A stretch of DNA of 64,000 bases from positions 424 to 64,423 of the forward strand of contig JBGAWP010000011.1 in NCBI GenBank assembly GCA_044227505.1, in the 5' to 3' direction. Positions 6,263 through 62,062 of the stretch are shown here, in pieces. Below the pieces are notes generated by a model that was not told the DNA's origin, ran no database searches, and was given only the letters and a program-made list of their open reading frames with translations. This DNA comes from Chitinophagales bacterium (GTDB taxonomy: Bacteria > Bacteroidota > Bacteroidia > Chitinophagales > BACL12). How positions within the stretch are numbered: position 1 is the stretch's first letter; each line of letters begins with the position of its first letter. The position numbers were made by a program, and so were the translations under genes.

Positions 6263-8416
6263 TTGTACACAATTAACAAAGATGGGAGTGGATTAACACA
6301 ATTGACATTCAGCGATATGAGTCTGGATTATGGGCAATTTGGAGATGCTGCAAGTGGTTTGATGGGATATGATGATACTGATCCTTGTTATTTACCCGAT
6401 GGAAGAATTGTTTTTTCTTCTACACGATATCCATCGTATGCGCAATACAGCGGTGTAAGAACAACCAATTTATTTGTTGTGAATTCAGATGGATCCAATT
6501 TGCACCGCATTACAAGTGAACGCAATGGCGCCGACAGGCCTGTTGTTGATCCGCAAACCGGTCGAATAGTTTATTCACGTTGGTGGAGAAATCATCGTTT
6601 TCCGTATGATGAAATGACAACGGTTGCTGATGGCGACGGATATTTATTTAAATCTGGATTATCGTCTGATAGAAATATCATGGTTGGAGGAGCTGACATG
6701 ATGTGGAGAAATGCCTGGCATGCAGCTTCTATAAATCCTGATGGAACAGATATTAAAATGTTTGCAGGAGGAATTCAAGGTGATGTTGGAAATCATATTT
6801 ATGGATGTGCGTTTACACCTTCCGGTGATTTAATAACCAATTTTTTTCCGATGTTCAACATGACGGAAGCTGCTGGTTTTGGAGGATTAAGAAAATATGA
6901 AAGAGGTCCGGGTGCTTACGAACATTTATTTGGCATAACAGATATATCCATTGATAATTATGCGCATGAAACGGATCCTACCTCTTATGGAATTTATAAT
7001 GGTGAATATGCAGGCGAACCTGATGTATTACCTGATGGAAGAATTATGTTCAGCTGGTGCTCTGATTATTATCAGCAATATGGTCTCTATGTTATGAATG
7101 CAGATGGTACCGGAAAGACATTAATTTATGATAACCCCTTAACCACGGAATTAAGAGTTAAAGCACTTAAAACACGACCACTACCTCCAATTATTGCTGA
7201 TTCCATATTTACCAATCCTTCTTTATTACCACCAACAGAAGCCGGGCCATTTAATGGGGATGGTGTATTTACTTTTGAATGTTTTAATGTATATTACAAT
7301 GATCAGATCGATGTTGACATTGTAAGTGCACCGGCAATTGGTTCTGCAAAAACAATTCGTTTTTTTATTGATCATCAGCGCACAAGTCCCGGATCATTTC
7401 CAACACTTGATTGGCCTATCTTATTAAATGAAAAAACAATAAAACCAGATGGATTTGTTTCAGAACCCAATGCTCCGGCAAATGTTCCGCTATTTGAACA
7501 ATTAAGAAGCAGTAATCCGCTTGGATATAATGTGCCTATGGCGGGAGAACCTTTTGATAATGGTGTTGCACATGTGGCCGGAATGAATTTCAGCAGAGAA
7601 GGAGCAAAAGCAACCTGTGTTGGATGTCATAGTGGACATAGTATGATTCCGGTTCCTGCAACACGTGCCGATGCCGAATTTACAAACCTTTCACCCGGAG
7701 CAACTGTGGAAGTTTCCAGTACAAGAGATGCAGCTTTAAATAAACATGTGATCGACCGAAGAGTACAAAAGGGTGAAGATTGGCAAGTGTGGAATTCTGC
7801 AATTGGCACCAGTGATAATCAATGGGTATTATTAAAATTTCCGGTTCCAATCACTATCCGCACCATAGTTTTATATAATGTTCCTTCGGGTGGAGAAGGA
7901 AATTCCACCATCGCATTAAATAAAACCACTGTTACTTTATATTCTGATGCAAACGGTTTAATTCCGATCATTTCAAAAAATATAAATAATGTTCCCGTTA
8001 ATGGAAAACATGCAACCTTTGCCGATGTTATTGCGCAGAGTGTGCGTGTTAAATTAAAAGATATAAGCGGAACATTTTATGGTTACGAAATTGGTGCAAT
8101 TGCCGAAATAGAAATTATTGCAAGTGGAGATATAAGCGGAGCAAAATTAGAAGCGCCTGCCAATGGATTCTCAGCACAAATATTTCCTAATCCGGTGAAT
8201 GATGTTTTGCATTACACCTTACAATACAAACCGGATGCAAATATTAATGTGCGTATAATTGATATAAATGGCGTAGTGATAAAAAACTTTGAAACCACGA
8301 TGGATGCCGGAATTACAGAAGATGAAATTTCTGTCGCAGACCTTGCTGCGGGGATTTATTTTATCACATTTAATAACGGCAGTAATAAGGAAAGTTTTAA
8401 ATTTGTGAAATTATAA
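6263..8416 (+). CDS. Secreted TolB-like beta-propeller / discoidin (F5/8 type C)-like protein with CxxCH motif and T9SS C-terminal domain. The true N-terminus probably lies upstream in another frame.
   Basis: PD40-like repeats ([42 protein letters not shown]). CVGCH at 7616-7630. Tail [14 protein letters not shown]...GIYFITF. Confidence 0.8.
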
Positions 8417-8424
8417 TCTCTAAA

Positions 8425-8640
8425 ATGACAGAACAAAACAAGGATCCCTTACATGGAAAAACATTGCAATTTATTTTAGAATTTCTTGTGAAAGAATATG
8501 GATGGGAAGATCTGGGGATGATAATTAGAATTAATTGTTTTAACGATAATCCAAGTATAAAATCCAGTTTAACTTTTTTGAGAAAAACGCCGTGGGCGAG
8601 GAAGAAGGTGGAGGAGTTGTATGTTGAGACTTTGCGATAA
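8425..8640 (+). CDS. VF530/DUF2132 family small DNA-binding protein
   Basis: 71 aa. [25 protein letters not shown]...[16 protein letters not shown] is the typical DUF2132 sequence. Confidence 0.85.
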
Positions 8641-8658
8641 TTAATGGATGTAATAATT

Positions 8659-8732
8659 AACAGCCGGACCTGCGGTCTAAATGTACCGATGAACAGCCGG
8701 ACCTGCGGTCTATATGTACCAATGTACCGATG
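8659..8732. repeat. Direct duplication of an about 33-nt unit (aacagccggacctgcggtcta[a/t]atgtacc..gatg)
   Basis: Two adjacent copies read directly. The word TGAACAGCCGG recurs at 61616 and, degenerate, at 8842 and 32594. Confidence 0.8.
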
Positions 8733-8932
8733 AACAGTCAAATTAATGTACCAATGCCTGCCCGTGTTGCGAGGGGAACAGATTAAGTATGTTAAATTAG
8801 CAAATTTGGAGGCCTTCGGCCAATTAGCAAATTAGCAAATGGAACAGCCGACGATTACTTTGAATTATACATTTTAGATCTGCAAGATATTTATATTAAG
8901 ACTGAACTTTTTTTAATTTAACTTTTAATAAA

Positions 8933-8962
8933 ACTGCGACTGCGACTGCGACTGCGACGCGC
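8933..8962. repeat. Hexamer microsatellite (CTGCGA)x4
   Basis: actgcgactgcgactgcgactgcgacgc. Confidence 0.85.
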
Positions 8963-9039
8963 CCCCAGCCCCATAGGGGAGTTTACCTTTTCGTAAATTG
9001 AAATATTAATTTCGAAGCAAAAAACTCCAATGTTACAAA

Positions 9040-9075
9040 CTGCCCACTGCCCACTGTTGACTGCCCACTGCCCCC
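9040..9075. repeat. Heptamer array (CTGCCCA)n abutting the stop of the dbpA-like gene
   Basis: ctgcccactgcccactgttgactgcccactgccc. A related copy in reverse orientation lies at about 33567-33589. Confidence 0.8.
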
Positions 9076-9076
9076 C

Positions 9077-10405
9077 TCACTTCGCAACCTCAACCTTCAC
9101 TTTCTTATTCTTAAGCTTATGTTCCTTTAATAAATGTAATGCCTGATTAATTTTAGTTTTACGGACAGCTACAAAACTGAAAAAATCTTTTACTTCTATT
9201 AATCCGATATCCTCCATTTTAAGGTCTCCGCGTTTGGTGAGATAGCCCACTATATCAATTTTATTTACTTTATCTTTTTTGCCCACTGAAATATAAAGTG
9301 TTGACCATTTTGGTTTGTCGGGAAGGATTTCCGTATCGGGTAATTGAATTTCTTCGTCAACGTGTTTAACATATTCAGGTAATTTTTCATCCTCTGATAA
9401 TATTAAAATAATTGTTCCGCTTGCATCCATTCGCGCTGTTCTTCCATTGCGGTGAATAAACATATCTTCCGTGTGTGGCAGATGATAGTGGATGATATAT
9501 CGGATGTTCGGAATATCCAGTCCCCTGCTCGCAAGATCCGTTGTTACTAAAACATCAAAAGTGCCGTTGCGGAATTTTATTAATGCACTGTCCCGCTCCT
9601 GCTGTTCCATTGCTCCGTGATAAAATACATTGTATATTCCTTTTTGTGTTAATAGTCCACTTGTGCGTTCCACGGATTCACGGTGGTTACAAAAAACAAT
9701 TGCAGATCTGTTGCCGATATAACATAATAATTTGAATAAAGTATCAGCTTTATCTTTTTCGGGCGACAAAACTGTTTGAATAGCTAATTGTGTTGTTGTA
9801 CTTTTTTCTTCACCTACAAATTCAAGATATTCGGGATCTTTAATTCCGATAAATTCGGGGATACTATGGGTATGTGTTGCAGAAGTTAATATTCTTTTAT
9901 TTATGGATGGCAATGAGGAAATAATAAAAGACATTTCATCCGTAAAACCCATTTCCATACTCTTATCAAATTCGTCTAAAACAAGGGTGGTAATTGTATC
10001 AGTAGTGATATTTCCTCTGCGAATATGATCAGCCAATCTTCCGGCAGTTCCGACAATTACAGCTGGTGGTTGAATAAGATTATTTTCTTCTGTTTCCCTT
10101 TTATGTCCTCCATAACAACAACTGATCTTAAATCCTGTGCCCATTGTCTTAAAAACCTGATCGATCTGCAAGGCCAATTCGCGAGTAGGAACAATGATCA
10201 TCGCCTGTGTTTTTTTATTACTTTGATCTAGCAGTTCTAGAACCGGCAATAAAAAAGCAAGTGTTTTACCTGAACCTGTCGCAGAAAGAACAACTACATC
10301 GGCATGTTTTTTATTTGCCTCAATGGTTGCAATTTGCATTTCATTGAGAGCATCTATTTTGAAATTATTAAGAATCTTATTCAGATCGTATTTAACCTTT
10401 TGCAT
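9077..10405 (-). CDS. dbpA: DbpA-like DEAD-box RNA helicase (DEFD variant) with C-terminal DbpA RNA-binding domain
   Basis: Motifs SATGSGKTLAF, PTRELA, DEFD, SAT and HRNGRTAR. The C-terminal segment is ISVGKKDKVNKIDIVGYLTK...IEVKDFFSFVAV. Confidence 0.88.
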   Translation of the reverse strand: MQKVKYDLNKILNNFKIDALNEMQIATIEANKKHADVVVLSATGSGKTLAFLLPVLELLDQSNKKTQAMIIVPTRELALQIDQVFKTMGTGFKISCCYGGHKRETEENNLIQPPAVIVGTAGRLADHIRRGNITTDTITTLVLDEFDKSMEMGFTDEMSFIISSLPSINKRILTSATHTHSIPEFIGIKDPEYLEFVGEEKSTTTQLAIQTVLSPEKDKADTLFKLLCYIGNRSAIVFCNHRESVERTSGLLTQKGIYNVFYHGAMEQQERDSALIKFRNGTFDVLVTTDLASRGLDIPNIRYIIHYHLPHTEDMFIHRNGRTARMDASGTIILILSEDEKLPEYVKHVDEEIQLPDTEILPDKPKWSTLYISVGKKDKVNKIDIVGYLTKRGDLKMEDIGLIEVKDFFSFVAVRKTKINQALHLLKEHKLKNKKVKVEVAK

Positions 10406-10542: not shown

Positions 10543-12738
10543 TTAAAGAATTAATAGTCCGTTTTCAAATAAGCCCAAAATGGATTTACTATGAATAAAC
10601 TGCTCAAAATCACTAAGTTCTGCAGCCAGATAAAGTTCTTGCATATCCTTAATTGTTAGAATTGGAAAACAATTAACGGATAACTTTGGCAATATTCCTG
10701 CTAACCAAATTCCTTGATCCTTGGGAAGCAAAATATTAAATTCAGAACTTTTGTCAACAAAAGATAGGCGAATCATTTCAACATTTGAATTCTTTTTTGT
10801 TTGTTCGAAAATTTCAATAATTGGTTGATTGCCCAGCCAAATAATTTTTGATGTTGGATTAATTTCATTATTCTCCTTTTCCGACAATACCTTTTTAATA
10901 TAATTTGGCGGGATTAATGTTTTGGGTATCTTAAAATCAAACCAGTTTTGAAGATCATCTTCCAAACCAATGCCGTGCATGTAATTAAGTAGTGATTTTT
11001 TCAATCCGAAACTGAATTTTTCATGATCGGTTCCGCTATCATCTATAAATTCAATATCGTTATTAGCAAAGGTGCCTATCGTATCATGTATTTTTGTTAC
11101 TTTGAAAAATGATGAATTTAATCCGACTGGGCTGTGCGCGGTCATGGCGAACTGATGCCAGAAACCAGATTGCATTATTCCCGCAGAAAATAGTTGTCGC
11201 ACCATTTCCAGTGCATCTATTGTTTCCTGTGTGGTCTGTGTAGGAAATCCATACATTAAATAAGCATGCACCATAATTCCCGCTTCTGTAAAATTGCGAT
11301 TTACTTTCGCGACTTGTGCAACGGTTACACCTTTTTGAATTAATTCCAATAATCTATCGGATGCAACTTCCAATCCTCCCGAAACTGCAATACATCCACT
11401 TGCTTTTAATAGCAGACACAGATCTTTTGTAAAACTCTTTTCGAAGCGAATATTGGTCCACCAGGTAATTTTAATATTGCGTCTTATTATTTCAATTGCA
11501 AAGGCACGCATTAATGCAGGTGGTGCAGCTTCATCCACAAAATGAAATCCTGATTGACCGGTTTGTTTAATTAATTCCTCCACCCTATCAGCCAAAAGTG
11601 TTGCTGCAACCGGTTCGTAGAGTTTGATATAATCCAGGGAAATATCACAGAAAGTGCATTTTCCCCAATAACATCCATGTGCCATGGTCAATTTATTCCA
11701 ACGTCCATCGCTCCACAAACTGTGCATGGGATTCATGATCTCTATTGCCGAAATATATTTATCGAGATAAAGATCACTGTAATCAGGTGTGCCTAACTCT
11801 CCTTGTTTATAATCCTTAGTTGCAGGATTATTAATATAGGTAACCGCTCCATCAATTAACGTAAATGTTCTTTTTAATTCGTTTAAATGTATCTCCCCTT
11901 TCGAATATTTAATTATATTTTCAAGCGGTGCTTCACCGTCATCAAGACAAATAAAATCGTAAAATTCGAATACACGCGGGTCGGAAAGAGATCGCAATTC
12001 CGTATTAGGAAATCCTCCACCCATAACAATTTTAATATGCGGATAATTTTTTTTGATGAATTGCGCACATCGGAAGGAGGAATATAAATTGCCCGGAAAC
12101 GGAACAGAAATGCCGACAATAGAAGTTTGGACATTGTCCAAATTTTGTTTTAATATTTTTAATAAAACGGTGTCCATATAAGTTTCAGGGCCGTGTAATA
12201 ATGCATATAACTCATCAAATGTATTTGCTGACCTTCCTAAACGTTCGGCGTATCGGCTGAATCCAAAAAAAGGATCTATACATTCACGGATAAGATCAGA
12301 AATATCTTCCATGTACATAGTAGCTAGAAATTTTGCCTGGTCTAGTTTTCCCATTGTGCCAAAAGCCCAATCCAGGTCTTCAATTTGAGCAAAACGGGAA
12401 GCTTCCGGTAAAAAATCACCCAAACAAATAACGTGAGCAAGTGTTGGATTTTTTCCACGTAAAAAATGCATTACATGATCAATGGTATTGATATAATCTT
12501 CTTTAAGCGCTATAATTCGTGCAGAATTTTCAGAAATACTTTCAGCATTTGGATCTATTGCCTCAAATAAATTGATCAATCCCTGTTTTGAAAAAATGAC
12601 ATCCGTAACCTCAATTCCCAGATCCGCCTGATAACAGGAAATATTGCGCGTATTTAAAAAGCCCTTTAAATAAACCGTACCTGGATATGGGGTATTGAGT
12701 TGAGTGAAAGGCGGGGTAAATAAAAAAACGGAGGTCAT
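10543..12738 (-). CDS. Large B12-binding-domain radical SAM protein (731 aa)
   Basis: The Rossmann-like B12-binding region (IVGISVPF...IKIVMGGGFP) is followed by the cluster motif CYWGKCTFC and a TIM-barrel-like region. Confidence 0.85.
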   Translation of the reverse strand: MTSVFLFTPPFTQLNTPYPGTVYLKGFLNTRNISCYQADLGIEVTDVIFSKQGLINLFEAIDPNAESISENSARIIALKEDYINTIDHVMHFLRGKNPTLAHVICLGDFLPEASRFAQIEDLDWAFGTMGKLDQAKFLATMYMEDISDLIRECIDPFFGFSRYAERLGRSANTFDELYALLHGPETYMDTVLLKILKQNLDNVQTSIVGISVPFPGNLYSSFRCAQFIKKNYPHIKIVMGGGFPNTELRSLSDPRVFEFYDFICLDDGEAPLENIIKYSKGEIHLNELKRTFTLIDGAVTYINNPATKDYKQGELGTPDYSDLYLDKYISAIEIMNPMHSLWSDGRWNKLTMAHGCYWGKCTFCDISLDYIKLYEPVAATLLADRVEELIKQTGQSGFHFVDEAAPPALMRAFAIEIIRRNIKITWWTNIRFEKSFTKDLCLLLKASGCIAVSGGLEVASDRLLELIQKGVTVAQVAKVNRNFTEAGIMVHAYLMYGFPTQTTQETIDALEMVRQLFSAGIMQSGFWHQFAMTAHSPVGLNSSFFKVTKIHDTIGTFANNDIEFIDDSGTDHEKFSFGLKKSLLNYMHGIGLEDDLQNWFDFKIPKTLIPPNYIKKVLSEKENNEINPTSKIIWLGNQPIIEIFEQTKKNSNVEMIRLSFVDKSSEFNILLPKDQGIWLAGILPKLSVNCFPILTIKDMQELYLAAELSDFEQFIHSKSILGLFENGLLIL

Positions 12739-12755
12739 TGGATTGCAAATGTAGT

Positions 12756-12863
12756 GAGTTCTGAGTTCTGAGTTCTGGGTTCTGAGTTCTGGGTTCTGAG
12801 TTCTGGGTTCGGGGTTCGGGGTTCGGGGTTCTGAGTTCGGGGTTCTGAGTTCTGGGTTCTGAA
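12756..12863. repeat. Octamer array GTTCKGRG, about 13 units
   Basis: gttctgag/gttctggg/gttcgggg units were read directly. The array starts 18 nt upstream of the radical SAM start codon. Confidence 0.95.
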
Positions 12864-12892: not shown

Positions 12893-12930
12893 TAATAGTA
12901 GAGACGCAATGCATTGTGTCTCTACTATTA
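12893..12930. repeat. 38-nt near-perfect palindrome (REP-like hairpin)
   Basis: The 13-bp arms of taatagtagagac-gcaatgcattgt-gtctctactatta pair perfectly, and the centre is itself nearly palindromic. Confidence 0.85.
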
Positions 12931-13116
12931 AACTAAATTTAAACGTTTAGGATAATGATCATACCAACGATTTAGATTACGATTCTATTAGAAGGAGTTA
13001 TGAGTAGGTTCGACTTTGAAAAACGTTTTGCGCAACATGGTAGCAAAATTTTCAAAAAGGAAATCAAAGCACCAATGTTAGCAGGATCAAACTCATAACT
13101 CATTACTCATATATAA

Positions 13117-13152
13117 AAAAAACCTTCCTGAAAAACTCCAGAAAGGTTTTAA
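13117..13152 (-). terminator. Rho-independent terminator of groEL
   Basis: The minus-strand RNA aacctttctg-gagttttt-caggaaggtt is followed by a U run. Confidence 0.8.
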
Positions 13153-13197: not shown

Positions 13198-13245
13198 CCC
13201 ACTCACTAAGTCCCACTCACCCCTACTCACCACTCCCCACTCACC
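13198..13245. repeat. Array of CCACTCAC-type words abutting the groEL stop codon
   Basis: cccactcactaagtcccactcacccctactcaccactccccactcacc. The same words occur at 61755-61777 and 61975-62003. Confidence 0.85.
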
Positions 13246-13248
13246 ATC

Positions 13249-14919
<1,671 letters not shown>

Positions 14920-14942
14920 TTAATTGATATCGCGTTTGGACA

Positions 14943-15251: not shown

Positions 15252-15404
15252 ATTTGATTTTTTATTGATTAAGTGAGTTTTATATTGCTACTGCCCGCCT
15301 GTCAGATATTGTGCCATCGGGCATTTTTGCTAATTGAGGCGCAAAGGTCAGACAAAATTTCAGAAATCCTTAATTTTTGCGAAAATGACTGACATAAATG
15401 TGGT

Positions 15405-15517
15405 AAAGATTCGAAGGGAGAAGATTCGAAGATTCGAAGGGAGAAGATTCGAAGATTCGAAGGGGAAGGTTCTAAGGGGGAAAAAGGAAGGAAGGGTTGG
15501 CTAAGGTTCAAAAAGGG
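15405..15517. repeat. Composite repeat (AGATTCGAAG/GGAGA words, then GAAGGTTCTAAGGG, AAGGAAGGAAGG, AAGGTT-AAAAAGG). Copy 1 of 2 in the window.
   Basis: It aligns by eye with 23317-23432 apart from a variable central insert. Confidence 0.85.
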
Positions 15518-15575
15518 GAAACAAATTATGATTCAAAATTTCAGACCCAAATTATACTTCAACAAAAATCAATCT

Positions 15576-15642
15576 AAGTCCTATATCATTTTTCCAATGT
15601 CCTATATCAAGTCATATTTCCTATGTCCTACTTCCTATTTCC
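15576..15642. repeat. TGTCCTA/TGTCATA-type word array
   Basis: aagtcctatatca...aatgtcctatatcaagtcatatttcctatgtcctacttcctatttcc. The 17-mer gtcctacttcctatttc recurs at about 29840-29856. Confidence 0.8.
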
Positions 15643-15724
15643 GCACACAAAAAAACCCACCTTGTTTTACCAAGGCGGGATTTCAAACCTATCCGCTTTT
15701 GAGGCGAATGTTTTTAAAGGAGGA

Positions 15725-21584: not shown

Positions 21585-23213
21585 CTATTTATTTATACAT
21601 ATTTTATCAGAATAATTTTTTGATTGTAAAAGATACATTCCCGCTCCGAGTTCCGAAATGTTTAGCGTTTGAACAGCAGATATTAGTTTGGCTTGAAAAA
21701 CAATCTGGCCCATTGCATTTATTATAAATATATTCTCCTCTTCAGAAAAACTATTGGATTTGATTGTGATATAATTATTAGCGGGATTAGGGTAAATAAA
21801 CCTGTCTGACGGAATTATTGTTTCCTCCAATCCCACTTCAAATTCCGTTTCCAATTTCCAGATCTCTGCTCCCACTGCATCTACATTGCCATTTAAAATT
21901 GCCATTCCATTATAGGTGATCATGGAATAAGGATAACGCAACTCGTCGCATTCCAAAAGCTGAAAGGTGCCGTCAACAGTGCCATTGCTCTGAAAAACGG
22001 TTGTGCAGCCATTATCATCATCATAACCGCTATACACAATATTATTTCCATTGATAACCGTTGCAAAATTGGCCTCAAAGGAACCGGAAGCGAATTCAGA
22101 TAAAAATTTAGTTCCTGCATTTGTGCCATTGGTTACCCATAAACCATCATCATTGTCCGCATTATCTGCAGCAAAAAATATTTTATTTTCTGAAGGAAGA
22201 AACGCGTAATTTCCGGGAGTGAATTCTTCTCCATTTTCATCCAATAATTTTTGAGTGCCTGCAACAGTTCCATCACTGGTAAAAAGAAATTCGTCATCAC
22301 CATTATCAGCCATAAAAAACAATTGATCATTTAAAATAAAAAATTGATGTGGTTCCGAACCATCACCTTCATCCTCATTTACATTCATAAATAATTCCGT
22401 TCCGCCGGGAGTTCCATCAGTGCGCCATAATTCCTGATCATAAGGATCTCCATCACCACCGGCAAAATAAATATGATCTTCAAATTGTATGAACATATTC
22501 TTATACTCCTTTGCAATAACCCACATTTGTTTCAACAGAACGGTTCCTGCCTCAGTGCCATCGCTCTTCCACAATTCAGATAAGCCGTCTGCATTTTTGC
22601 ATCGGAAATAAATGGCATTATCAATTGCTGTAATAAATTCAGGAACGCTGCTTGAACCAATTGCCAGATCTTTGACAAGATATGTTCCGGCCTCTGTTCC
22701 ATCGCTGCGCCAGAGCTCTATATTGTTGCCTCCTCCATCGGCTGCGAAATATAAAATATCGTTCATTTCAGTGAAATATTGCGCCGACATAAATATCGAA
22801 TTTGAACAATCGCCTAAACCCGGATTTATGTCTTTTACCATATAAGTTCCTGCTTCGGTACCGTCGCTGCGCCATATCTCTGCTCCATAAACATTATCAG
22901 AAGCTCTGAAATATAAAATGTTGTTCATCACAATATGTTCGGGGCCACAACCATACACCGATTGACACATTGAATTGGCGCCGGTTCCAATATTTTTAAC
23001 CATCCAGGTTCCGGCTTCTGTTGCGTCTGTCCTCCATAATTCAATGCCATTTGAACCGTCATTTGCAGTGAAATAAATGATATCACCCATTTCAACAAAT
23101 AAACCGGGGTCGCTGTGCGCTTCACCCGGGTTAATGTCCTTAATCAATTCCAGTGTGTATTGGGCGTGCAACCTTGTAGTAACACAAAGTGCGATGAATA
23201 TTATTTTTTTCAT
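21585..23213 (-). CDS. ELWxxDGT-repeat protein with T9SS C-terminal domain (start moved to MKKIIFIAL at 23213)
   Basis: Repeated ELWRTDATEAGT / EIWRSDGTEAGTYMVKDI units. The tail is IYPNPANNYITI...GMYLLQS. The upstream 76 codons of the track ORF are translated repeat DNA. Confidence 0.85.
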   Translation of the reverse strand: MKKIIFIALCVTTRLHAQYTLELIKDINPGEAHSDPGLFVEMGDIIYFTANDGSNGIELWRTDATEAGTWMVKNIGTGANSMCQSVYGCGPEHIVMNNILYFRASDNVYGAEIWRSDGTEAGTYMVKDINPGLGDCSNSIFMSAQYFTEMNDILYFAADGGGNNIELWRSDGTEAGTYLVKDLAIGSSSVPEFITAIDNAIYFRCKNADGLSELWKSDGTEAGTVLLKQMWVIAKEYKNMFIQFEDHIYFAGGDGDPYDQELWRTDGTPGGTELFMNVNEDEGDGSEPHQFFILNDQLFFMADNGDDEFLFTSDGTVAGTQKLLDENGEEFTPGNYAFLPSENKIFFAADNADNDDGLWVTNGTNAGTKFLSEFASGSFEANFATVINGNNIVYSGYDDDNGCTTVFQSNGTVDGTFQLLECDELRYPYSMITYNGMAILNGNVDAVGAEIWKLETEFEVGLEETIIPSDRFIYPNPANNYITIKSNSFSEEENIFIINAMGQIVFQAKLISAVQTLNISELGAGMYLLQSKNYSDKICINK

Positions 23214-23316
23214 ATAAAAGGTTTGAAATTTTATACAGCAAATTGACTGTATTTTATTGAGTTTAGCAAGGAGAAAAAAGGGAGATTGTAGCGATGGGTT
23301 GAAGATTTGAGGTGTT

Positions 23317-23432
23317 AAAGATTCGAAGGGAGAAGATTCGAAGAGTTGAACCCGCCTGCTGACTGCGTCGGGCAGGGGTGAAGGTTCTAAGGGTCTAAGG
23401 AAGGAAGGTGTTGCAAGGTTGAAAAAGGAGGT
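23317..23432. repeat. Composite repeat, copy 2 (partner of 15405-15517), carrying a CCTGC..GCAGG hairpin insert
   Basis: aaagattcgaagggagaagattcgaag ... gaaggttctaaggg..aaggaaggaagg..aaggttgaaaaagg. Confidence 0.85.
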
Positions 23433-23512
23433 TCCAAGCACTAATATGCCGTTAGTGACCCTCCTAAGCGAGATCTCATGATGTATTATTTTTTAAACTC
23501 CACCGTTTGTTT

Positions 23513-23634
23513 TCCTATGTCATATGTCCTATGTCATATGTCCTATGTCATATGTCCTATGTCATATGTCATATGTCCTATGTCATATGTCCTATGTCAT
23601 ACGTCCTATGTCCTATGTCGCGCGCCTCGCGCCT
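23513..23634. repeat. Heptamer array ATGTCMT (about 15 units), then (GCGCCTC)x2
   Basis: Read directly. It lies between the divergent genes at 23213 (-) and 23687 (+). Confidence 0.95.
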
Positions 23635-27865: not shown

Positions 27866-27953
27866 ATCCTATGTCAAATTTGCATTGTCCTTTGTCCAGT
27901 CCTGTGTCCTGTGTCCTGTATCCTGTATCTTGTGTCCTGCCTCCTGTGTCCTA
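27866..27953. repeat. TGTCC / CCTGTRT heptamer array running into the rarA stop codon
   Basis: cctgtgtcctgtgtcctgtatcctgtatcttgtgtcctgcctcctgtgtccta. Confidence 0.9.
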
Positions 27954-29219
27954 ATAATCATACTTGCCTCCCCACCGCTCCTTCAAAAACCTCCTCATCT
28001 CATTTTCCTTCGCATTACTGCCCGGTTCGAAAATTTTTGTGCCTTTAATTTCGTCTGGGAGAAATTCCATTTCGGTGAAATTGTTTTCGTAGTCGTGGGC
28101 GTATTTATATTCTTTCCCGTAATTTAATTCCTTCATTAATTTGGTGGGAGCATTTCTGATAGGTAAAGGAATTTGAAGATCACCTTTTTCTCTTACGATA
28201 TTGGTGGCATTTTGTAAGGCGACATACGAGGCATTACTTTTTGGCGAGGTTGCGAGATAAATTACTGTTTGTGCGAGGGTTAATCTGCATTCGGGATATC
28301 CCAACATAGTAACAGCTTGAAAACAACTTGTAGCCAATAATAATGCGTTGGGATTTGCATTTCCGATATCCTCACTTGCGAGCACCAACATACGACGGGC
28401 GATAAATTTTGGGTCCTCCCCTCCTTCTATCATACGCACCATATAATAGATCGCGGCATTAGGATCACTTCCGCGCATACTTTTTATAAATGCGGAAATA
28501 ATATCGTAATGTTGTTCGCCATTCTTATCGTATAAAACGAGTTTTTTTTGTGCAATTTGTTTTACAAGATCATTGGTAATTATTAATTTTTCTTCTGTTA
28601 CCGATTCTTCAATTAATTCCAATAGATTTAATAATTTTCTTGCATCACCTCCACTTAATTGTAAAAGCGCTTCCTCTTCTTCAATAATTATTTTTCGTTT
28701 GGATAATATTTCATCCTCGGTAATTGCGCGCTTAATTAATTGCTGTAAATCTTCTTTGGTAAATTCCTTTAATACAAATACCTGACTTCGCGACAATAAT
28801 GCCGATATCACTTCAAAAGATGGATTTTCTGTTGTCGCACCAATTAATAAAATAGTGCCCTTTTCCACCGCTCCCAACAACGAATCCTGTTGCGCTTTAT
28901 TAAACCGATGAATCTCATCAATAAACAATACAATTTTTCCACCCTTCTCCCCTTTCTCAATTACCTCACGCACATCCTTCACTCCGGAAGAAACAGCGCT
29001 CAGCGAAAAAAAAGGCAAATTAGCCGACTTCGCAATAATATTTGCCAGTGTTGTTTTCCCCACTCCCGGAGGCCCCCAGAATATCATGGAAACCAGTTTT
29101 CCGCTTTGAATCATACGCCGCAAAACCTGTCCCTCCCCCACTAAATGCTGCTGCCCGATAAATTCATCGAGGTTTTTGGGGCGAAGGCGTTCGGCGAGAG
29201 GTATGGTGTTGAAAAGCAT
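27951..29219 (-). CDS. rarA: Replication-associated recombination protein A (AAA+ ATPase MgsA/RarA)
   Basis: LAERLRP..LDEFIGQQHL, Walker A GPPGVGKTT, FIDEIHRFNK and the C-terminal MgsA domain. Confidence 0.95.
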   Translation of the reverse strand: MLFNTIPLAERLRPKNLDEFIGQQHLVGEGQVLRRMIQSGKLVSMIFWGPPGVGKTTLANIIAKSANLPFFSLSAVSSGVKDVREVIEKGEKGGKIVLFIDEIHRFNKAQQDSLLGAVEKGTILLIGATTENPSFEVISALLSRSQVFVLKEFTKEDLQQLIKRAITEDEILSKRKIIIEEEEALLQLSGGDARKLLNLLELIEESVTEEKLIITNDLVKQIAQKKLVLYDKNGEQHYDIISAFIKSMRGSDPNAAIYYMVRMIEGGEDPKFIARRMLVLASEDIGNANPNALLLATSCFQAVTMLGYPECRLTLAQTVIYLATSPKSNASYVALQNATNIVREKGDLQIPLPIRNAPTKLMKELNYGKEYKYAHDYENNFTEMEFLPDEIKGTKIFEPGSNAKENEMRRFLKERWGGKYDY

Positions 29220-29860
29220 GGTGTAAAGTTAAAGAATTGCTGCCACAGACATTTAAACTGCTACCAATATTAGGATAATCCGGACATAATCCCGATTTAA
29301 ATGTTTAAGGTTAAACAGAATCACGGAGAATGCGGCAGTTTTTTATTCCCTAACTTTACAGTACAAGTAGGTGGTATAAAGAGCTATAAGTGCAAGAAAT
29401 TGAGATTTTTACACTAAGCGTACTATAAAAGGCAAAATGCTATAGTGAAAGGTTATGATGTAGAATGTGGTAGTCCTGATTAATTAAAAAATTATGAAAG
29501 ATTTATTGAGCCTCATATTAGCAGTCTGCCTGATTTCCGGGTATTGTTTTTTTGCTGGAAAATATGTTTTATTATATAGTAAGAGAAAGGATGCAGGTTT
29601 TGAAGCAAACCATGAAAAGGATTTAGACAATTTAGATTTTATTCGTGGATATTCGTGATTGTATTTATAACTTGTGCAATAATATTCACATTTATTATCC
29701 CAGAATGACCAAGGTCAATTATACCTTTATTGAGACTGAATAAAAAGCGAGAGCCGTCATCCAAAGAAAATTTACAATTAAAAAAAATCAACTCAAATCC
29801 GAGATTAATTTATTAATTGAAATTAAACAATATCCTGTGTCCTACTTCCTATTTCAAATT

Positions 29861-30915: not shown

Positions 30916-30975
30916 TGTCCTTTGTCCAATTTACAATGTCATTTGTCAGTCCTATGTCCCGTGTCCTAAATCCTA
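30916..30975. repeat. TGTCC-word array abutting the exbD stop codon
   Basis: tgtcctttgtccaatttacaatgtcatttgtcagtcctatgtcccgtgtcctaaatcct. The block tgtcctttgtcca is shared with 27886-27898. Confidence 0.8.
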
Positions 30976-32070: not shown

Positions 32071-32526
32071 AATTAGTATCTATTTAAATAAATTTACAAT
32101 ATTGATTCAGCTTGCCTAAATTATAAATACAAATAAACAGCTAAAAGTGTAGAGTTATTGGCTATATTCTGATAACTTATTAGTTAGGTAATTGTTTGAT
32201 GTACAGTATTATAAACATCAAACAATATGGTTTTTCCTCATATATAACACAAATACGAAATGTTGTGCCAAATTATTGTGTGAATTCAATTTTAAACAAA
32301 AAATGATTCCAGGGTTCTCTAATGCTTTGAAGTTATTTTTTTACCTAAAGGTCCCAAAGAAGCCAAAAAAGAGCACTATGTTAAATCCAAAATACCTTGT
32401 GTCCCTTGTGTGTTCCCTTGAGATCTTTGTGGTTGTTTTTTTTATTTATATTGTGTTAAAAAGGGGAATTAATGAACATTACACGGACAATAGGACTTCT
32501 ATTATTGAAATCAAAATATAGCTTTT

Positions 32527-32595
32527 ATTCGTGCATTCGTGGTAACTTTTTTTGTCCATTATTTAGGTTCAAAGAGTTGCCACGAATGCACGAAT
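32527..32595. repeat. Long hairpin: 20-nt arms (19/20 paired) with a 29-nt loop, built from ATTCGTG words
   Basis: attcgtgcattcgtggtaac ... gttgccacgaatgcacgaat. Confidence 0.85.
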
Positions 32596-32683
32596 GAACA
32601 GTCGGTGTATGGACCTTTTTAACCCAATAAATATTTATACCAGGAAATGGCTGAATGTGTTAGCAGGCAATAAATCGGGAAGG

Positions 32684-33451: not shown

Positions 33452-33764
33452 AATTTCGGCTGTGTTCGATATTTAACGCTAATTTACGATAAAAAGGAGT
33501 GGTTTGTTGCATATATTTGTAATAAAGGTGTAATAGTTAACAAAGGATTCACATTTTTAGATGGTAGTTAGCAGTGGGCAGGTTGACGGAGTGATGATTT
33601 TTTCTTCGAATAAAACTTAATTGGATGATAAACCTTTTAAATATTAAATCTCAAGGTTAAAAGCAGGAAGCAACCTGAAATTTTTAAATATAAACGCGAA
33701 AATAAATTCCAAATGATAGAGATAAATTAACATGCGTAATCTCTAACTACTGTATACTATATTC

Positions 33765-38635: not shown

Positions 38636-38685
38636 AACCCATCCTCCAAGTGAAAATATTTCTTGGGTGATGGGTTTTTCTTTTC
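38636..38685 (+). terminator. Rho-independent terminator after the tRNA
   Basis: Stem aacccatcctccaag / cttgggtgatgggtt (15-nt arms with a 2-nt internal mismatch, 13 bp paired) is followed by tttttctttt. Confidence 0.7.
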
Positions 38686-38700
38686 ATGTAAGGTAACCAT

Positions 38701-38770
38701 GATTAGAATGATTAGCAAATTAGCCCCCGCCTGCTTCGCATTCGGGCAGGAATTAGCAAATTAGCAAATG
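38701..38770. repeat. ATTAGCAA words flanking a CCTGC..GCAGG hairpin
   Basis: gattagaatgattagcaaattagcccccgcctgcttcgcattcgggcaggaattagcaaattagcaaatg. Confidence 0.85.
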
Positions 38771-42077: not shown

Positions 42078-42133
42078 TGTTCTGACATGTAGTAGATCTC
42101 CTGCGTCGACCACTACATGTTTCGGTTCTGGGC
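42078..42133. repeat. About 52-nt hairpin element, copy 1 (partner at 61666-61730)
   Basis: gttctgacatgtagtagatctcctgcgtcgaccactacatgtttcggttctg. The arms are acatgtagt.g.tc / gac.actacatgt. Confidence 0.85.
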
Positions 42134-42178
42134 CTGCCTGCCGACTGCGTCAGCGTCAGGCAGGTTCTGAGTTCTGAG

Positions 42179-42550
42179 TTCAATGCGGAGGAATATATTA
42201 CGGGTGGTCTATCCGATTAATGTTCTTTATTCCATGTTCTTTACCTGCCTGCCGCTGAAGCTGTCAGCAGGCAGGTTCGATATTATTTTTGCGTTCTGCG
42301 TTCAATACGGAGGAATATCTTACGGGTGGTCTATCCGATTAATGTTTTTTATTTTTTGATTGTTATTGGATATTATTTCTGGGTCCAATACGGAGGAATA
42401 TCTTACGGGTGGTCTATCCGATTAGCGTTTTATATTTTTTGATTGTTATTGGATATTATTTCTGGGTTCAATGCGGAGGAATATCTTACGGGTGGTCTAT
42501 CCGATTAGCGTTTTATATTTTTTGATTGTTATTGGATATTATTTCTGCGA
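42179..42550. repeat. Tandem array of four copies of an about 83-bp unit. Copy 1 is interrupted by a 10-bp-stem CCTGCCTGC hairpin.
   Basis: Unit boundaries are 42179, 42301, 42385, 42468 and 42550. The conserved core is caat[g/a]cggaggaatatcttacgggtggtctatccgatta, followed by an AT-rich half that is also conserved. Confidence 0.95.
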
Positions 42551-44507: not shown

Positions 44508-46880
44508 ATGAAAAAATTATTACTAGGTTTTCTGACCATCGCGACAGGATTCACCGCGATCAAGGCTCAGGTTGTCACCGTAAGTGGTGAAATAACGACC
44601 AACACAACGTGGACCAACGACAACATTTATCTTTTAAGTGGTTTTGTTTATGTTGAAGATGGTGCAACACTAACCATTGAGGAAGGAACACTAATTAAAG
44701 GTGACAAAGCTTCCAAGGGCACTTTAATTATTACTAAAACAGGAAGTATTAATGCAATTGGTACTGAATGTGAACCAATTGTTTTTACATCAAATGAACC
44801 TGCAGGTACAAGAACTTATGGCGATTGGGGTGGAGTTATCCTATTAGGAGAAGCCCCTATTAATGTTCCCGGCGGAAGCGCAGTAATTGAAGGTGGAGTT
44901 GATACTCCTGAAGGTGATGGAACCTATGGCGGAGCAAATGCATCTGATAACAGTGGTACATTTAAATATGTGCGCATCGAATTTGCAGGAATTCCTTTTG
45001 TTCCCGGGAATGAAATAAATGGTTTAACAATGGGCGGAGTTGGATCAGGTACCACCATAGATCATATTCAGGTATCTTATAGTGGTGATGATGCATTTGA
45101 ATGGTTTGGCGGAACAGTGAATGCCAAATATTTAATTGGATATCGCAACTGGGATGATGAATTTGATACCGATTTTGGATATTCAGGAAAAGTACAATTT
45201 GGTTATGTTTTACGCGATCCGAATGTTGCTGATGTTTCCGGTTCAAATGGTTTTGAATCAGACAATGATGCAACAGGTTCAGCAAATACTCCGATTTCAA
45301 GAGGTTTATTTTCTAACATTACTATTGCCGGTCCTAAAGTAAATACAGGTGATGTAATTAATGTAAATTATAAAAGAGGTGCTCATCAACGAAGAAATAC
45401 CATGACATCTATTTATAATTCGATCATTATGGGATATCCTGAAGCTGGATTTAAAATTGAAGGAACGAATACATCTTTAAATGCCCAGGCTGATAATTTA
45501 CAATTCAAAAACAATATTCTATCAGGTCATGGTGACGATTATCTTTGCACCACTTGCGATGCCGGATTTAATATTGATACATATGGTTCATCAAACGGAA
45601 ATCAAACTATTCTTTTAAATTCTGGTGTTGGATTAGTTGATGCCTTTAATTTATCAAATCCTGATCCCCGTCCAACTGCAGGTTCAACACCTACTACTAT
45701 TGGAACATATTTTGCAGGTTTATTAAGCGATCCTTTCTTTACACCAACCAGTTATGCTGGTGCATTTTCAACATCTGATAACTGGACTGATGAATCATGG
45801 GTTAATTTTAATCCTCAATCAACAGCTTATAACACTCCCGGAATTAATAATAACCCGACTGTTTCAGGCGTAGTTAGCAATATGACATGTCCGAATACAG
45901 GTTCAATTGATGTTTCAGTATCAGGTGGCGCAGGTGGATATACTTATGTTTGGAGCGATGGCCCAACAACACAAGATCGTTCCGGTTTAGCGGCAGGTTC
46001 TTATACTGTTACAGTAACAAGTAATGGTTGTTCAGCTGCTTCCACATTTAACGTAGCAGATGTAACAGTTCCAAAACCAACAGCCTTAATAGCTTCAAAC
46101 ATTACGCATTGCAGTGTTAAAGTAAGCTGGACAGCTGCATCAGGTGCTGCTACCTATGAAGTTCGTTATAGAATTGCAGGTGGAGTTTATTCATCACCTT
46201 TAAATATAGGTGCTGTCACAAACTATACCTTTATAGGATTAGCTGCAAGCACAAGTTATGACTTTCAGGTAAGATCTAAATGTGCTACGTCAGAAAAAAG
46301 TGCCTGGGCCAAAAAAACTACTTCTACAGTTGTTTGTGGTCAAGTAACAGGTGTTACTGCATCAAGTATCACCGCCAGCTCTGCAGTTATTAACTGGGCT
46401 GATGCTTGTGGAACTAATAACTACACTGTTCAATATCGTAAATTCCCATTAAAACCGTGGACTTCTTTACCAACCGCATTTACAACCACAAAAACTATAA
46501 CAGGTTTACTTGCTTCCACAACTTACGAAGTACGTATTATAACTAATTGTGGTGGTGGTGCTTCAACTCCAACTGCCTTCATTTCATTTACAACATTGCC
46601 ATTCCGTGCAGAAAATAATGTTATTGTTGATGAGAATTTAGTTCAGATCAACCCTAATCCTGCATCTGAAAATGTTGCATTGACAATTGAAGCAAATGCA
46701 ACTGTAAATGTTTCCATCGTTAATATGGTTGGACAAGTTGTATATGAAAATACTAATTTAACTGTTGATGGTTTCTCAACCATCAATCTTTCTGTAAACA
46801 ATTTAGAATCAGGAATCTATTTGGTAAATGTAAATGGTGACAATGTGAATGTTACCAAAGAGTTAGTAATAAGTAAATAA
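44508..46880 (+). CDS. Secreted beta-helix protein (paralog A) with SprB repeat, three FN3-like domains and T9SS C-terminal domain
   Basis: It has a signal peptide and an N-terminal roughly 300 aa closely similar to 49901..51769. The SprB-type repeat is CPNTGSIDVSVSGGAGGYTYVWSDG. FN3-like units follow (HCSVKVSWTAASGAATYEVRYR..), and the tail is INPNPASENVALTI...GIYLVNV. Confidence 0.85.
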   Translation: MKKLLLGFLTIATGFTAIKAQVVTVSGEITTNTTWTNDNIYLLSGFVYVEDGATLTIEEGTLIKGDKASKGTLIITKTGSINAIGTECEPIVFTSNEPAGTRTYGDWGGVILLGEAPINVPGGSAVIEGGVDTPEGDGTYGGANASDNSGTFKYVRIEFAGIPFVPGNEINGLTMGGVGSGTTIDHIQVSYSGDDAFEWFGGTVNAKYLIGYRNWDDEFDTDFGYSGKVQFGYVLRDPNVADVSGSNGFESDNDATGSANTPISRGLFSNITIAGPKVNTGDVINVNYKRGAHQRRNTMTSIYNSIIMGYPEAGFKIEGTNTSLNAQADNLQFKNNILSGHGDDYLCTTCDAGFNIDTYGSSNGNQTILLNSGVGLVDAFNLSNPDPRPTAGSTPTTIGTYFAGLLSDPFFTPTSYAGAFSTSDNWTDESWVNFNPQSTAYNTPGINNNPTVSGVVSNMTCPNTGSIDVSVSGGAGGYTYVWSDGPTTQDRSGLAAGSYTVTVTSNGCSAASTFNVADVTVPKPTALIASNITHCSVKVSWTAASGAATYEVRYRIAGGVYSSPLNIGAVTNYTFIGLAASTSYDFQVRSKCATSEKSAWAKKTTSTVVCGQVTGVTASSITASSAVINWADACGTNNYTVQYRKFPLKPWTSLPTAFTTTKTITGLLASTTYEVRIITNCGGGASTPTAFISFTTLPFRAENNVIVDENLVQINPNPASENVALTIEANATVNVSIVNMVGQVVYENTNLTVDGFSTINLSVNNLESGIYLVNVNGDNVNVTKELVISK

Positions 46881-61613: not shown

Positions 61614-62040
61614 CAATTGAACAGCCGGGATTGCGGTTGGATGATACTTTTCGATCTTTTGTTCGGAGTTCTGACATGTAGTAGATCTCCTTCGTCGATC
61701 ACTACATGTTTCAGTTCTGTGTTCTGAGTTGGAGTTCTCGGATCACGTTTGGTTTCCTCACCACTCACCACTCACCTATTGGGTTCTGGGTTTTATGTTA
61801 GTTCTCGGTTGAGGATGGGTTTTCTTACCATTCAACTCTCATCGTGAATCGTCAATCGTGAAGCGTGAGTCCGATCCTAACACGGATCAAACTCATTACT
61901 CATTACTCATTATTCATTTGGTGAATCGTGAGCCTGCCTGACGGCAGTCAGGTCCGATCCCTTCTCAGATCAATCTCACTACTCACCACTCACCATTCAC
62001 CCAATTCCCAATTATCTCTTAAATTAAAATATCTTCGTAC
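61594..62040. repeat. Mosaic of short-word arrays and hairpins
   Basis: In order: AATTGAC x4, TGAACAGCCGG, hairpin element copy 2, GTTCTGAG words, CCACTCAC words, AATCGTGA words, GGATCAAACTCATTACTCAT, a CCTGCC hairpin, then CCACTCAC words. All were read directly. Several modules are shared with 12739-13248, 42076-42178 and 8659-8732. Confidence 0.9.
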
Positions 62041-62062
62041 TGCTTTCGTCATAATCTCTTGT

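Follow-up and report, generated by a model that had tools for sequence, protein, structure and literature searches.

In the intergenic DNA of a 64,000-nucleotide (nt) stretch of a Chitinophagales bacterium contig (GenBank JBGAWP010000011.1, positions 424 to 64,423; hereafter the window), we found numerous direct arrays of degenerate 6- to 9-nt words. These arrays are enriched far above compositional expectation, have a predominant period of 7 nt, are excluded from open reading frames (ORFs), reuse a small vocabulary at unlinked loci, differ by whole units between near-identical strains, undergo deletions between one array and another, and persist at the same sites in related species. They likely represent lineage-specific families of bacterial simple sequence repeats (SSRs), shaped by slippage and inter-array recombination, by exclusion from ORFs and by the copying of words, a reading in which we place good though not complete confidence.

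Tandem repeats were called over the window by using Tandem Repeats Finder (TRF; 60 rows, from which overlaps were removed before counting), and 51 long ORFs covering 84% of the window served as the gene set. Non-redundant period-7 arrays numbered 14 (544 nt in total) in the 10,260 nt of non-ORF DNA and only two (54 nt) in the 53,740 nt of ORF DNA. With all periods taken together, the concatenated intergenic DNA held 33 arrays spanning 1,069 nt, or about 10% of its length, as compared with a mean of 4.05 arrays (90 nt; maximum 11) in 100 dinucleotide-preserving shuffles of the same DNA. At period 7, the shuffles gave a mean of 0.47 and a maximum of 3 against the 14 observed. The units were 6 to 9 nt long with heptamers in the majority, the arrays were degenerate (match levels of 70–86%), and, per base, the density of the vocabulary words in intergenic DNA was 4 to 12 times that in ORF DNA. 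The initial annotation of this DNA, made from the sequence alone, had proposed that the intergenic regions are filled with arrays of tandem words whose unit lengths are mostly not multiples of three, and the existence of such arrays and their unit lengths were borne out by these counts.

It had also allowed that the words might be no more frequent than expected from shuffled composition, or that the arrays might be assembly artefacts. The latter idea could draw on the frequent breaking of short-read contigs at arrays; meanwhile, independent assemblies in ENA, JGI and Logan, derived from many samples, carry the same arrays with the same flanks. Chance and misassembly were thus refuted by the shuffles and by the independent assemblies and strain contigs, and they retain practically no probability as explanations.

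Both ORF-overlapping period-7 arrays were accounted for: that at 61594-61620 lies at a gene terminus and is not internal, and that at 61975-62001 is an artefact of a mis-called ORF start. The ORF concerned (61928-62668), encoding an extracytoplasmic function (ECF) sigma factor, truly starts at 62063, and gene callers give a product of 201 amino acids (aa). None of the arrays in the window was internal to a real ORF, in agreement with the earlier statement that coding sequence is free of them except at gene termini. As to their frequency, a 6- to 9-nt array called by TRF was present in 11 of the 30 spacers of at least 100 nt (13 when two degenerate examples from the initial annotation are counted), and by either count none of the spacers of this length between 43.6 and 59.2 kb carried one, so that the claim that most spacers longer than about 100 bp contain arrays was overstated. 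The words listed in that annotation were present in all of its intervals; however, 33567-33589 holds a single copy and no array, while 1283-1322, 1533-1570 and 32527-32595 proved to be inverted-repeat arms or a hairpin. Its interval 23317-23345 falls in non-coding DNA because the type IX secretion system (T9SS) gene called at 21585-23441 probably starts at 23213 (signal peptide MKKIIF...) and not at 23441.

The preference for 7 nt extends beyond the window. At 46 more distant Bacteroidota loci (770 kb), period 7 was the commonest period among arrays of at least 3.5 copies, with 19 arrays versus 10 at period 8 and seven at period 6. By the same copy threshold, the window holds 10 period-7 arrays, corresponding to about six times the density of those loci.

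The arrays, together with the gene next to the longest of them (the prime array), are as follows, with window coordinates and strand; all terminator positions here and below are predictions from a home-made scan.

8648-8732 (+): 33-nt repeat in 2.3 copies plus ATGTACCR 8-mers (TRF)
8796-8842 (+): AATTAGCA 8-mer words interrupted by a small GC hairpin (GGCCTTCGGCC)
8933-8958 (+): hexamer ACTGCG in 4.3 copies (TRF), a partner in the 124-nt inter-array deletion described below
9039-9073 (+): heptamer ACTGCCC in five copies, 3 nt past the DEAD-box helicase stop codon (gene 9077-10405, - strand)
10543-12738 (-): radical S-adenosylmethionine (SAM) gene with a 731-aa product, the prime array lying on its upstream side, 16 nt from the start codon
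12755-12862 (+): prime array, 15.4 heptamers GTTCTGA/GTTCTGG/GTTCGGG (TRF), adjoining a TAnnTTTG box
13090-13111 (+): AACTCAT in 3.1 copies, directly after the groEL terminator (13117-13147, - strand)
13198-13246 (+): CCACTCA/ACTCACC words between the groEL stop codon (13249) and its terminator, that is, in the 3' untranslated region (UTR)
14891-14925 (+): 8-mer ATTTGTTA in 4.4 copies in the 59-nt groES-groEL spacer, 7 nt from the start codon
15406-15476 (+): GAAGATTC(GAAGGGA) composite with periods of 8 and 23 nt, upstream of groES
15576-15642 (+): degenerate TATTTCC/TATGTCC words just past the terminator (15650-15680, - strand) of an M4 peptidase gene
23516-23619 (+): TATGTCA/TATGTCC heptamers, 14.9 copies alternating with a higher-order period of 14 nt, flanked by divergent genes
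27886-27952 (+): degenerate TGTCCTG/TATCCTG heptamers, 9.9 copies, beginning at the stop codon of the MgsA-like gene 27951-29219 (-)
29833-29856 (+): short TCCTGTG/TCCTACT/TCCTATT words, 4 nt from a stop codon
30916-30975 (+): degenerate TGTCC/TCCTA words directly 3' of the exbD stop codon
38597-38635 (+): 8-mer AATTAGCA in 4.4 copies, preceded by the tRNA-Met 3' end (38594) and followed by a terminator (38637-38680)
38701-38770 (+): AATTAGCA words around a GC-rich inverted repeat (GCCTGC...GGGCAGG), for which fold prediction gave no significant structure (z -0.31)
42164-42181 (+): GTTCTGA in 2.6 copies, adjoining a GC hairpin at 42133-42164
61594-61620 (+): AATTGAC in 3.9 copies, overlapping the stop codon of a hydrolase gene, with the TGA of the unit serving as the stop
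61661-61738 (+): GAGTTCT/GTTCTGA words with a nested hairpin element (TRF)
61757-61776 (+): CTCACCA in 2.9 copies (TRF)
61841-61868 (+): ATCGTGA in four copies (TRF)
61891-61918 (+): ACTCATT in four copies (TRF)
61975-62001 (+): CTCACCA in 3.9 copies, upstream of the true sigma-factor start

The prime array had initially been described as about 13 copies of an 8-mer, GTTCKGRG; TRF resolved it instead into the heptamer GTTCKGR. The form TAnnTTTG corresponds to the -7 promoter consensus of Bacteroidetes. A -7-like box of this form, TACATTTG, lies at 12747-12754 and starts 15 nt upstream of the radical-SAM start codon, and a strict scan for TAnnTTTG found a box beside this array only. Since the array adjoins the box, the spacer and -33 region would consist of array sequence at any copy number. 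The box reads TAACTTTG in the strain contig L053, TACATTTG in L001 and L080 and TATTTTTG in L002, the last three being from related species; thus the motif is kept while its letters change. A perfect 18-bp hairpin at 12897-12926, beside the prime array, is distinct from the 52-nt hairpin element described below.

A start codon is found at a distance of about 20 nt or less for two arrays, namely the prime array and the groES-groEL 8-mer array, which in gene sense reads as four copies of TAACAAAT and fills the spacer. Most of the others adjoin stop codons or terminators. Six begin at, or at most 5 nt from, a stop codon (9039, 13225, 27886, 29833, 30916 and 61594), and one begins 5 nt past tRNA-Met (38600). 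At groEL, an array is predicted on either side of the terminator, the first of them following the stop codon; at tRNA-Met, the array separates the tRNA from a terminator; and after the M4 peptidase gene, the terminator precedes the array. We also considered whether the units supply in-sense stop codons to the upstream gene; among six 3' arrays inspected by eye, four did and two did not, near the hand-estimated chance level (about 0.4 per strand), and the idea was rejected.

The same words were found to recur at unlinked loci. Among 15 heptamer arrays there were six identical same-strand unit pairs versus 0.25 expected, a number reached in none of 2,000 permutations (p < 0.0005), while none of the identical pairs among these arrays was on opposite strands. 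In the window, GTTCTGA occurs in three spacers, the TGTCCTA family in four, and CTCACCA, ACTCATT and AATTAGCA in two each, all on the + strand. These five word families keep that strand regardless of the direction of the flanking genes, whereas ATCGTGA is mixed, and one and the same word may be seen upstream of genes, downstream of them, between convergent and between divergent genes, in both orientations relative to transcription. The reuse of a limited vocabulary, asserted in the initial annotation, was thereby confirmed; its usually fixed orientation holds moderately, for the five families and with few independent comparisons. As 31 heptamer arrays at the other Bacteroidota loci were no nearer to the window words than permuted units were, a vocabulary common to Bacteroidota was rejected; the words elsewhere are unrelated to those of the window, and the vocabularies are therefore lineage-specific.

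The cumulative GC skew of the window has a minimum near 32 kb, and the prevailing gene direction changes from mostly - to mostly + near 35 kb, where recF and dciA lie. An origin near 32–35 kb, by which the words might be oriented, was considered; no DnaA-box cluster was present in the window (25 matches versus 23.8 expected), and such an origin is thus unsupported.

To follow the arrays among strains, we used contigs of short-read metagenome assemblies (ENA, Logan and JGI) from many samples, found by exact-protein look-up and near-identical to the window (e.g., one substitution in a 640-nt spacer). In the 449-nt spacer upstream of the sigma-factor gene, three independent exact 7-nt insertions or deletions (indels) with few substitutions were observed among strains: AATTGAC in three or four units, GAGTTCT in one or two, and CTCACCA (61757-61776) in two or three. 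At 61661-61738, the strains covering the stretch (L070-L074) have one GAGTTCT unit more than the window, and the ACTCATT array at 61891-61918 showed one internal substitution. In the VF530-helicase spacer, all strain contigs reaching there (L108-L117) carry one additional 8-nt unit, ATGTACCG, and L111 lacks 41 nt of the 33-nt repeat at 8648-8732. These exact 7-nt and 8-nt differences support the option, raised initially, that the arrays vary in copy number by replication slippage.

Larger changes were also evident. In L109-L111, 124 nt are deleted such that the ACTGCG array runs, via the ACTGC core common to both, into the end of the ACTGCCC array, and the helicase 3' array is eliminated entirely. 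The window and L053 agree in the number of prime-array units (15) but not in the order of the three unit variants; in principle the unit order within this 105-nt array could be misassembled, although contigs built with k=141 span it. In L050 the prime array is reduced to three units, followed by about 950 nt of strain-specific DNA (L050 7400-8354; window ~12840) that encodes small proteins of 76 aa and 101 aa and an HTH_3 protein, and is absent from the window and from all other loci compared. The array at 27886-27952 is 32 nt longer in L062, with several internal substitutions and none in the approximately 300-nt flank. Upstream of groES, the CTTCGAATCTT array is absent or vestigial in L052, L057 and L054, although the encoded GroES is identical. 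The groES-groEL 8-mer array, in turn, has a constant length in all strains, the divergent L052 and L057 included, and the short or degenerate arrays at 29833-29856 and 30916-30975 were monomorphic. Short-read contigs break at arrays in L054, L058, L059, L106, L112-L114 and L117; L106, a Logan contig, starts 84 nt upstream of the start codon at 23687, which by computation from the coordinates is about window position 23603, within the array 23516-23619. Exact-protein look-ups with the GSCFA protein and a 133-aa protein returned no contigs over the spacer at 42 kb.

Two features of the groES upstream region stand beside these data. About 170 nt proximal to groES (~15252-15420) are kept even in the divergent L052 and L057, unlike the distal repeat-bearing part. 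Within this proximal region lies an imperfect palindrome, TTAGCAAAAATGCCCG...CGGGCAGTAGCAA, a possible operator that we take not to be the canonical CIRCE (controlling inverted repeat of chaperone expression) sequence.

Related species retain the arrays as well. By the radical-SAM protein, the closest genomes were uncultured Chitinophagales at 83% and 72% identity, followed by Chitinophagaceae at about 65%; a metagenome scan with this protein found one close relative, L080 (same species as L001), which added one orthologous copy of the prime-array site. In L001 and L080 (83% protein identity), three units (CCCCGAAC/CCCTGAAC, CCTGAAC and TCAGAAC) occupy the prime-array site upstream of the same promoter box, with other words (GCAGTYG) farther upstream of the gene. 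L049 carries ten copies of GGGCAGT/AAACAGT right after the helicase stop codon, versus five in the window, and also retains CGCAGT (the ACTGCG array, two copies), ATTTGCTA plus a hairpin, arranged as at 8796-8842 in the window, and CATCGGTA words. L002 (72%) has ATGAGT and CACTCAC words in the corresponding spacer and no array upstream of the radical-SAM gene. In Chryseobacterium (L018-L025, L099 and L105), the orthologous radical-SAM gene ends in a tandem array that opens with the gene's stop codon as its first triplet. The array varies by species and is (TTTTTAG)2-7, (GGTTTAA)8 or (GGTTTA)20. The Chryseobacterium array is then followed by a conserved palindrome, GTCATTCCGTAGGAATC...GATTCCTACGGAATGAC, resembling a repetitive extragenic palindromic (REP) element.

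On these grounds, we infer that slippage is the mechanism, that the shared words stem from copying, and that function is weak or absent. Whole units would be added, removed and reshuffled by slipped-strand mispairing as DNA is replicated or repaired, and arrays with a shared core such as ACTGC would recombine with each other, deleting the DNA in between. As 7 is not a multiple of 3, each slip inside an ORF would shift the frame, and arrays would for this reason survive only outside ORFs, piling up at stop codons, terminators and the promoter -7 box. The shared vocabulary would arise as existing words are copied to new sites and are then expanded and homogenised locally; recombination between arrays and the small hairpin elements nested in them are possible routes, and an independent origin of the words at each site is less likely. 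If slippage depends on repeat purity, the monomorphism of short or degenerate arrays is as expected. Effects on expression, exerted by the spacing upstream of promoters or by the length of 5' and 3' UTRs, are probably incidental and graded, and not the raison d'être of the arrays.

Several points nevertheless weigh against this account. Plain slippage by itself leaves unexplained why a few words recur on the same strand whatever the gene direction, and is inadequate for words that are recognizable at orthologous sites in species with only 80–83% protein identity. The many arrays that begin exactly at stop codons or adjoin a promoter box or terminator may reflect function rather than tolerance. 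Furthermore, the strain evidence comes from short-read metagenome assemblies, in which misassembly of the prime-array unit order is conceivable. A more far-reaching reading is that the heptamer arrays of Bacteroidota are more than debris of slippage and constitute a strand-oriented lineage vocabulary kept across species at defined sites (from stop codons onward, around terminators and beside promoter boxes), with specific 7-mers being recognised or added by a dedicated factor or propagation mechanism (for instance a protein that binds them sequence-specifically, a signal oriented by replication or segregation, or an activity that adds repeats from a template), and with the arrays acting as preferred breakpoints for insertion and deletion of strain genes; we consider it distinctly improbable.

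It could also be envisaged that the arrays are selected cis-regulatory platforms, offering multiple sites to a sequence-specific DNA- or RNA-binding factor and tuning expression by copy number; promoter-upstream arrays would then act as DNA and 5' and 3' UTR arrays as RNA, along the lines proposed for TAACTGA and for Nostoc heptamers. The small, strand-consistent vocabulary is compatible with such a role, as are the retention of the same word at the same site in related species, the array running from the stop codon of the orthologous gene in all the Chryseobacterium species, and the precise placement at the TAnnTTTG box of the radical-SAM gene, in stop-terminator intervals and right after a tRNA. 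In Nostoc, moreover, deletion of heptamer repeats alters reporter output (bioRxiv 10.1101/2022.06.06.494920). In contrast, near-identical strains differ in copy number, unit order and even presence of arrays, the helicase 3' array being deleted and the groES upstream array absent in some, and one word serves in every gene context and in both orientations relative to transcription. The 70–86% match levels, the lack of an array in half or more of the long spacers and the unrelated words of other Bacteroidota point the same way. A selected platform is hence unlikely, and the protein-binding role suggested by the initial annotation received no direct support, given that arrays are lost, reshuffled and deleted among near-identical strains.

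Hairpins and inverted repeats entangled with the arrays bear on a further alternative, in which the arrays derive primarily from small mobile elements, as their target sites, as duplications of such sites, or as the terminal repeats of hairpins and miniature inverted-repeat transposable elements (MITEs), tandem amplification being secondary. The relevant rows are given below.

1281-1572 (no strand): MITE-like unit with 40-nt inverted arms, 90% complementary and 212 nt apart, made of GCAGAG 8- to 9-mers; single-copy in the window
32524-32598 (no strand): 75-nt hairpin separating convergent genes, its 28-nt arms (89% complementary) formed by ATTCGTGC dimers in inverted orientation

A 52-nt hairpin element, GTTCTGA-CATGTAGTAGATC...ACTACATG-TTTCRGTTCTG, is present at 42079-42130 (+) and 61668-61719; the two copies are 94% identical, 19.6 kb apart and bounded on both sides by GTTCTG words. 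GC hairpins (CCTGCC...GGCAGG) also break up GTTCTGA words, GC hairpins or looser inverted repeats lie within AATTAGCA words, and in L050 the strain-specific gene segment is fused directly to the third prime-array unit. These observations, together with the MITE-like unit and its GCAGAG arms, would be in keeping with a mobile origin, and small dispersed repeats nested in heptamer arrays were reportedly described in Nostoc by Elhai and colleagues in 2008. However, most arrays have no adjacent hairpin or inverted repeat, and the strain differences are whole-unit indels, not insertions or excisions of elements. No transposase was found among the approximately 30 window ORFs scanned against Pfam, which was not a search aimed at transposases. 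An origin as by-products of mobile elements is accordingly assigned a very low probability.

The initial annotation held that REP and MITE models fail to explain the arrays, which is correct for the arrays proper. Their units are direct, non-palindromic and 6 to 9 nt long, as opposed to the imperfect palindromes of about 20–40 nt that make up REP elements, bacterial interspersed mosaic elements (BIMEs) and REPINs; they have no terminal inverted repeats, inverted arms being confined to 1281-1572; and, unlike clustered regularly interspaced short palindromic repeats (CRISPRs), they are contiguous 6- to 9-mers without spacers. The statement does not extend to its own listed example at 1281-1572, which is itself MITE-like, nor to the 52-nt hairpin nested in GTTCTGA words at two loci.

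As regards known repeat classes, the best match was found among long SSRs with units of 5–11 nt, of which heptamers are the most abundant in most prokaryotic genomes (Mrazek 2007, as cited in PMC4679880). Genes are free of long SSRs whose unit length is other than a multiple of 3, polymerase slippage is the proposed origin of long SSRs, and they exceed composition expectation with a patchy phylogenetic distribution (Mrazek 2007, as cited in PMC4679880 and PMC4692102). As relayed in PMC4679880, none of the ten richest genomes of that survey is from Bacteroidota; they belong to Burkholderia, cyanobacteria, actinobacteria and Xanthomonas. The present arrays share with long SSRs the 6- to 9-nt head-to-tail units, the excess over composition, the heptamer majority, the exclusion from ORFs and the whole-unit polymorphism; locus-level vocabularies of several words and positions relative to stop codons, terminators or promoters, as given here, do not appear in that survey insofar as later papers relay it.

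A second precedent is the short tandemly repeated repetitive (STRR) sequences of Calothrix PCC 7601, in which a few heptamers are amplified at many dispersed non-coding loci (Mazel 1990, cited as ref 39 in PMC4692102). Similarly, the same heptamer is here tandem at several dispersed non-coding loci, within 64 kb, although the host is a Chitinophagales-like member of Bacteroidota whereas STRR hosts are cyanobacteria. STRR1 to STRR3 have the units CCCCAGT, TTGGTCA and CAACAGT, none of which occurs as a tandem dimer on either strand of the window.

Heptamer direct repeats of TAACTGA and other units have been described in Beggiatoaceae, Cyanobacteria and five Bacteroidetes, with "larger assemblages of heptamer repeats" in Elizabethkingia, Gramella and Aequorivita; indels in 7-nt steps separate close Cyanothece strains, contigs of relatives end in repeats, in a Microcystis sample the repeats share one chromosomal orientation, and a possible role of the repeats in rearrangement was raised (MacGregor 2015, PMC4679880). 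The window resembles these cases in its intergenic heptamer direct repeats, 7-nt indels and contigs breaking in repeats. It differs in that TAACTGA is present as 12 single copies and no tandem dimers, and in that most arrays are 3' of genes or around terminators, whereas TAACTGA repeats lie, in forward orientation, a few nt upstream of start codons; its Chitinophagales lineage is also outside the taxa of that study (PMC4679880).

The G-rich heptamers GGGAATC of Xanthomonas and GGGGAYT of Nostoc form about 180 intergenic arrays per genome (Rehm 2015, PMC4692102), located at the same gene pairs in related species with wide variation in length and sequence and with some inverted pairs; the Xanthomonas intergenic heptamer repeats differ in length between close relatives (PMC4692102). 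Retention of intergenic heptamer arrays of variable length at the same sites in related species is common to both systems. In contrast to those G-quadruplex-forming repeats, most words of the window are not G-rich, and only part of the prime array, with its GGGGTTC runs, has four G-tracts.

In Haemophilus influenzae, HMW1A phase variation and the variable expression of hmw1A and hmw2A are reportedly linked to tandem heptanucleotide repeats (PMC8262952, PMC2424069). Each of these is a lone contingency locus whose phenotype has been proven in a host-adapted pathogen, unlike the dozens of arrays at housekeeping genes here. The hmw1A and hmw2A repeats lie upstream of their genes, and expression falls gradedly as copy number rises. 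By analogy, the Haemophilus hmw promoter repeats could be a model for an action of the prime array on the radical-SAM gene.

None of the published units, namely STRR1-3, TAACTGA, GGGAATC, GGGGAYT, TTTTGAA, ATCTTTC and TTTTGAT, was found in tandem in the window. A heterocystous cyanobacterium with STRR repeats, considered as the host, was rejected on this ground and in view of the Chitinophagales and Chitinophagaceae relatives and the T9SS proteins. Because no published unit is tandem here and because the host is outside the described taxa, we group the arrays with the known class rather than with STRR or TAACTGA repeats proper; they belong to the described class of long SSRs of 5–11 nt and STRR type, in a little-studied lineage. 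The claim that no described family has this architecture therefore failed, given the matches to STRR (via PMC4692102), long SSRs and the heptamers of MacGregor 2015 (PMC4679880).

In practical terms, the arrays are hypervariable markers of the kind used in variable-number tandem-repeat (VNTR) typing, including multiple-locus VNTR analysis (MLVA), and separate near-identical strains of an uncultured Chitinophagales population. The breaking of short-read metagenome contigs at arrays limits the contiguity of metagenome-assembled genomes. With the arrays, mutable DNA is set against promoters, 3' ends and terminators of groESL and of the genes for the radical-SAM enzyme, the DEAD-box helicase, the ECF sigma factor and a tRNA, and, in view of the inter-array deletions and the strain-specific gene junction, the arrays give rise to variation, both regulatory and structural, among members of a population. 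This lineage and Chryseobacterium would offer non-cyanobacterial systems for testing why 7-nt units and few words per lineage are preferred, a question that dates back to the description of the cyanobacterial STRRs.

The window is otherwise an ordinary Bacteroidota chromosome segment of low GC content (36%). Its genes include groES/groEL, DEAD-box helicases, the radical-SAM enzyme, recF, dciA, exbBD, lumazine synthase and tRNA-Met, the last being the sole Rfam match in the whole window, and Pfam identified many T9SS (Por_Secre_tail) proteins. The ORF 8397-8741 (-) is spurious, the real gene there being that of a conserved 71-aa VF530 protein at 8425-8640 (+).

Further repeats and hairpins were noted. 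Separate hairpins are located at 12897-12926, 42086-42121 and 32524-32598; for the last, a DNA fold of -24.8 kcal/mol (z -10) was predicted, and this hairpin may serve as a bidirectional terminator or represent a small palindromic element. The MITE-like unit 1281-1572 has an AT-rich 212-nt core and is enclosed by a looser inverted pair, 1221-1270/1600-1649. A segment of about 120 nt (CTTCGAATCTT repeats plus CCTTCCTTCC...GAACCTT) is common to 15400-15518 and 23312-23431, upstream of groES and of a T9SS protein gene, respectively, and is oriented alike with respect to the two genes. In the spacer of the convergent RmuC/GSCFA gene pair, a unit of 83–88 nt is repeated four times in tandem (42172-42547), the last three copies being 94% identical and each unit opening with a TTCTGRGTTC word; a structured RNA was rejected here, with no Rfam match at E ≤ 1 and no significant fold on either strand. 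Finally, 44616-45292 and 50024-50700, 5,408 nt apart within ORFs of 790 aa and 638 aa, share 71–78% DNA identity and are probably paralogous genes or domains.

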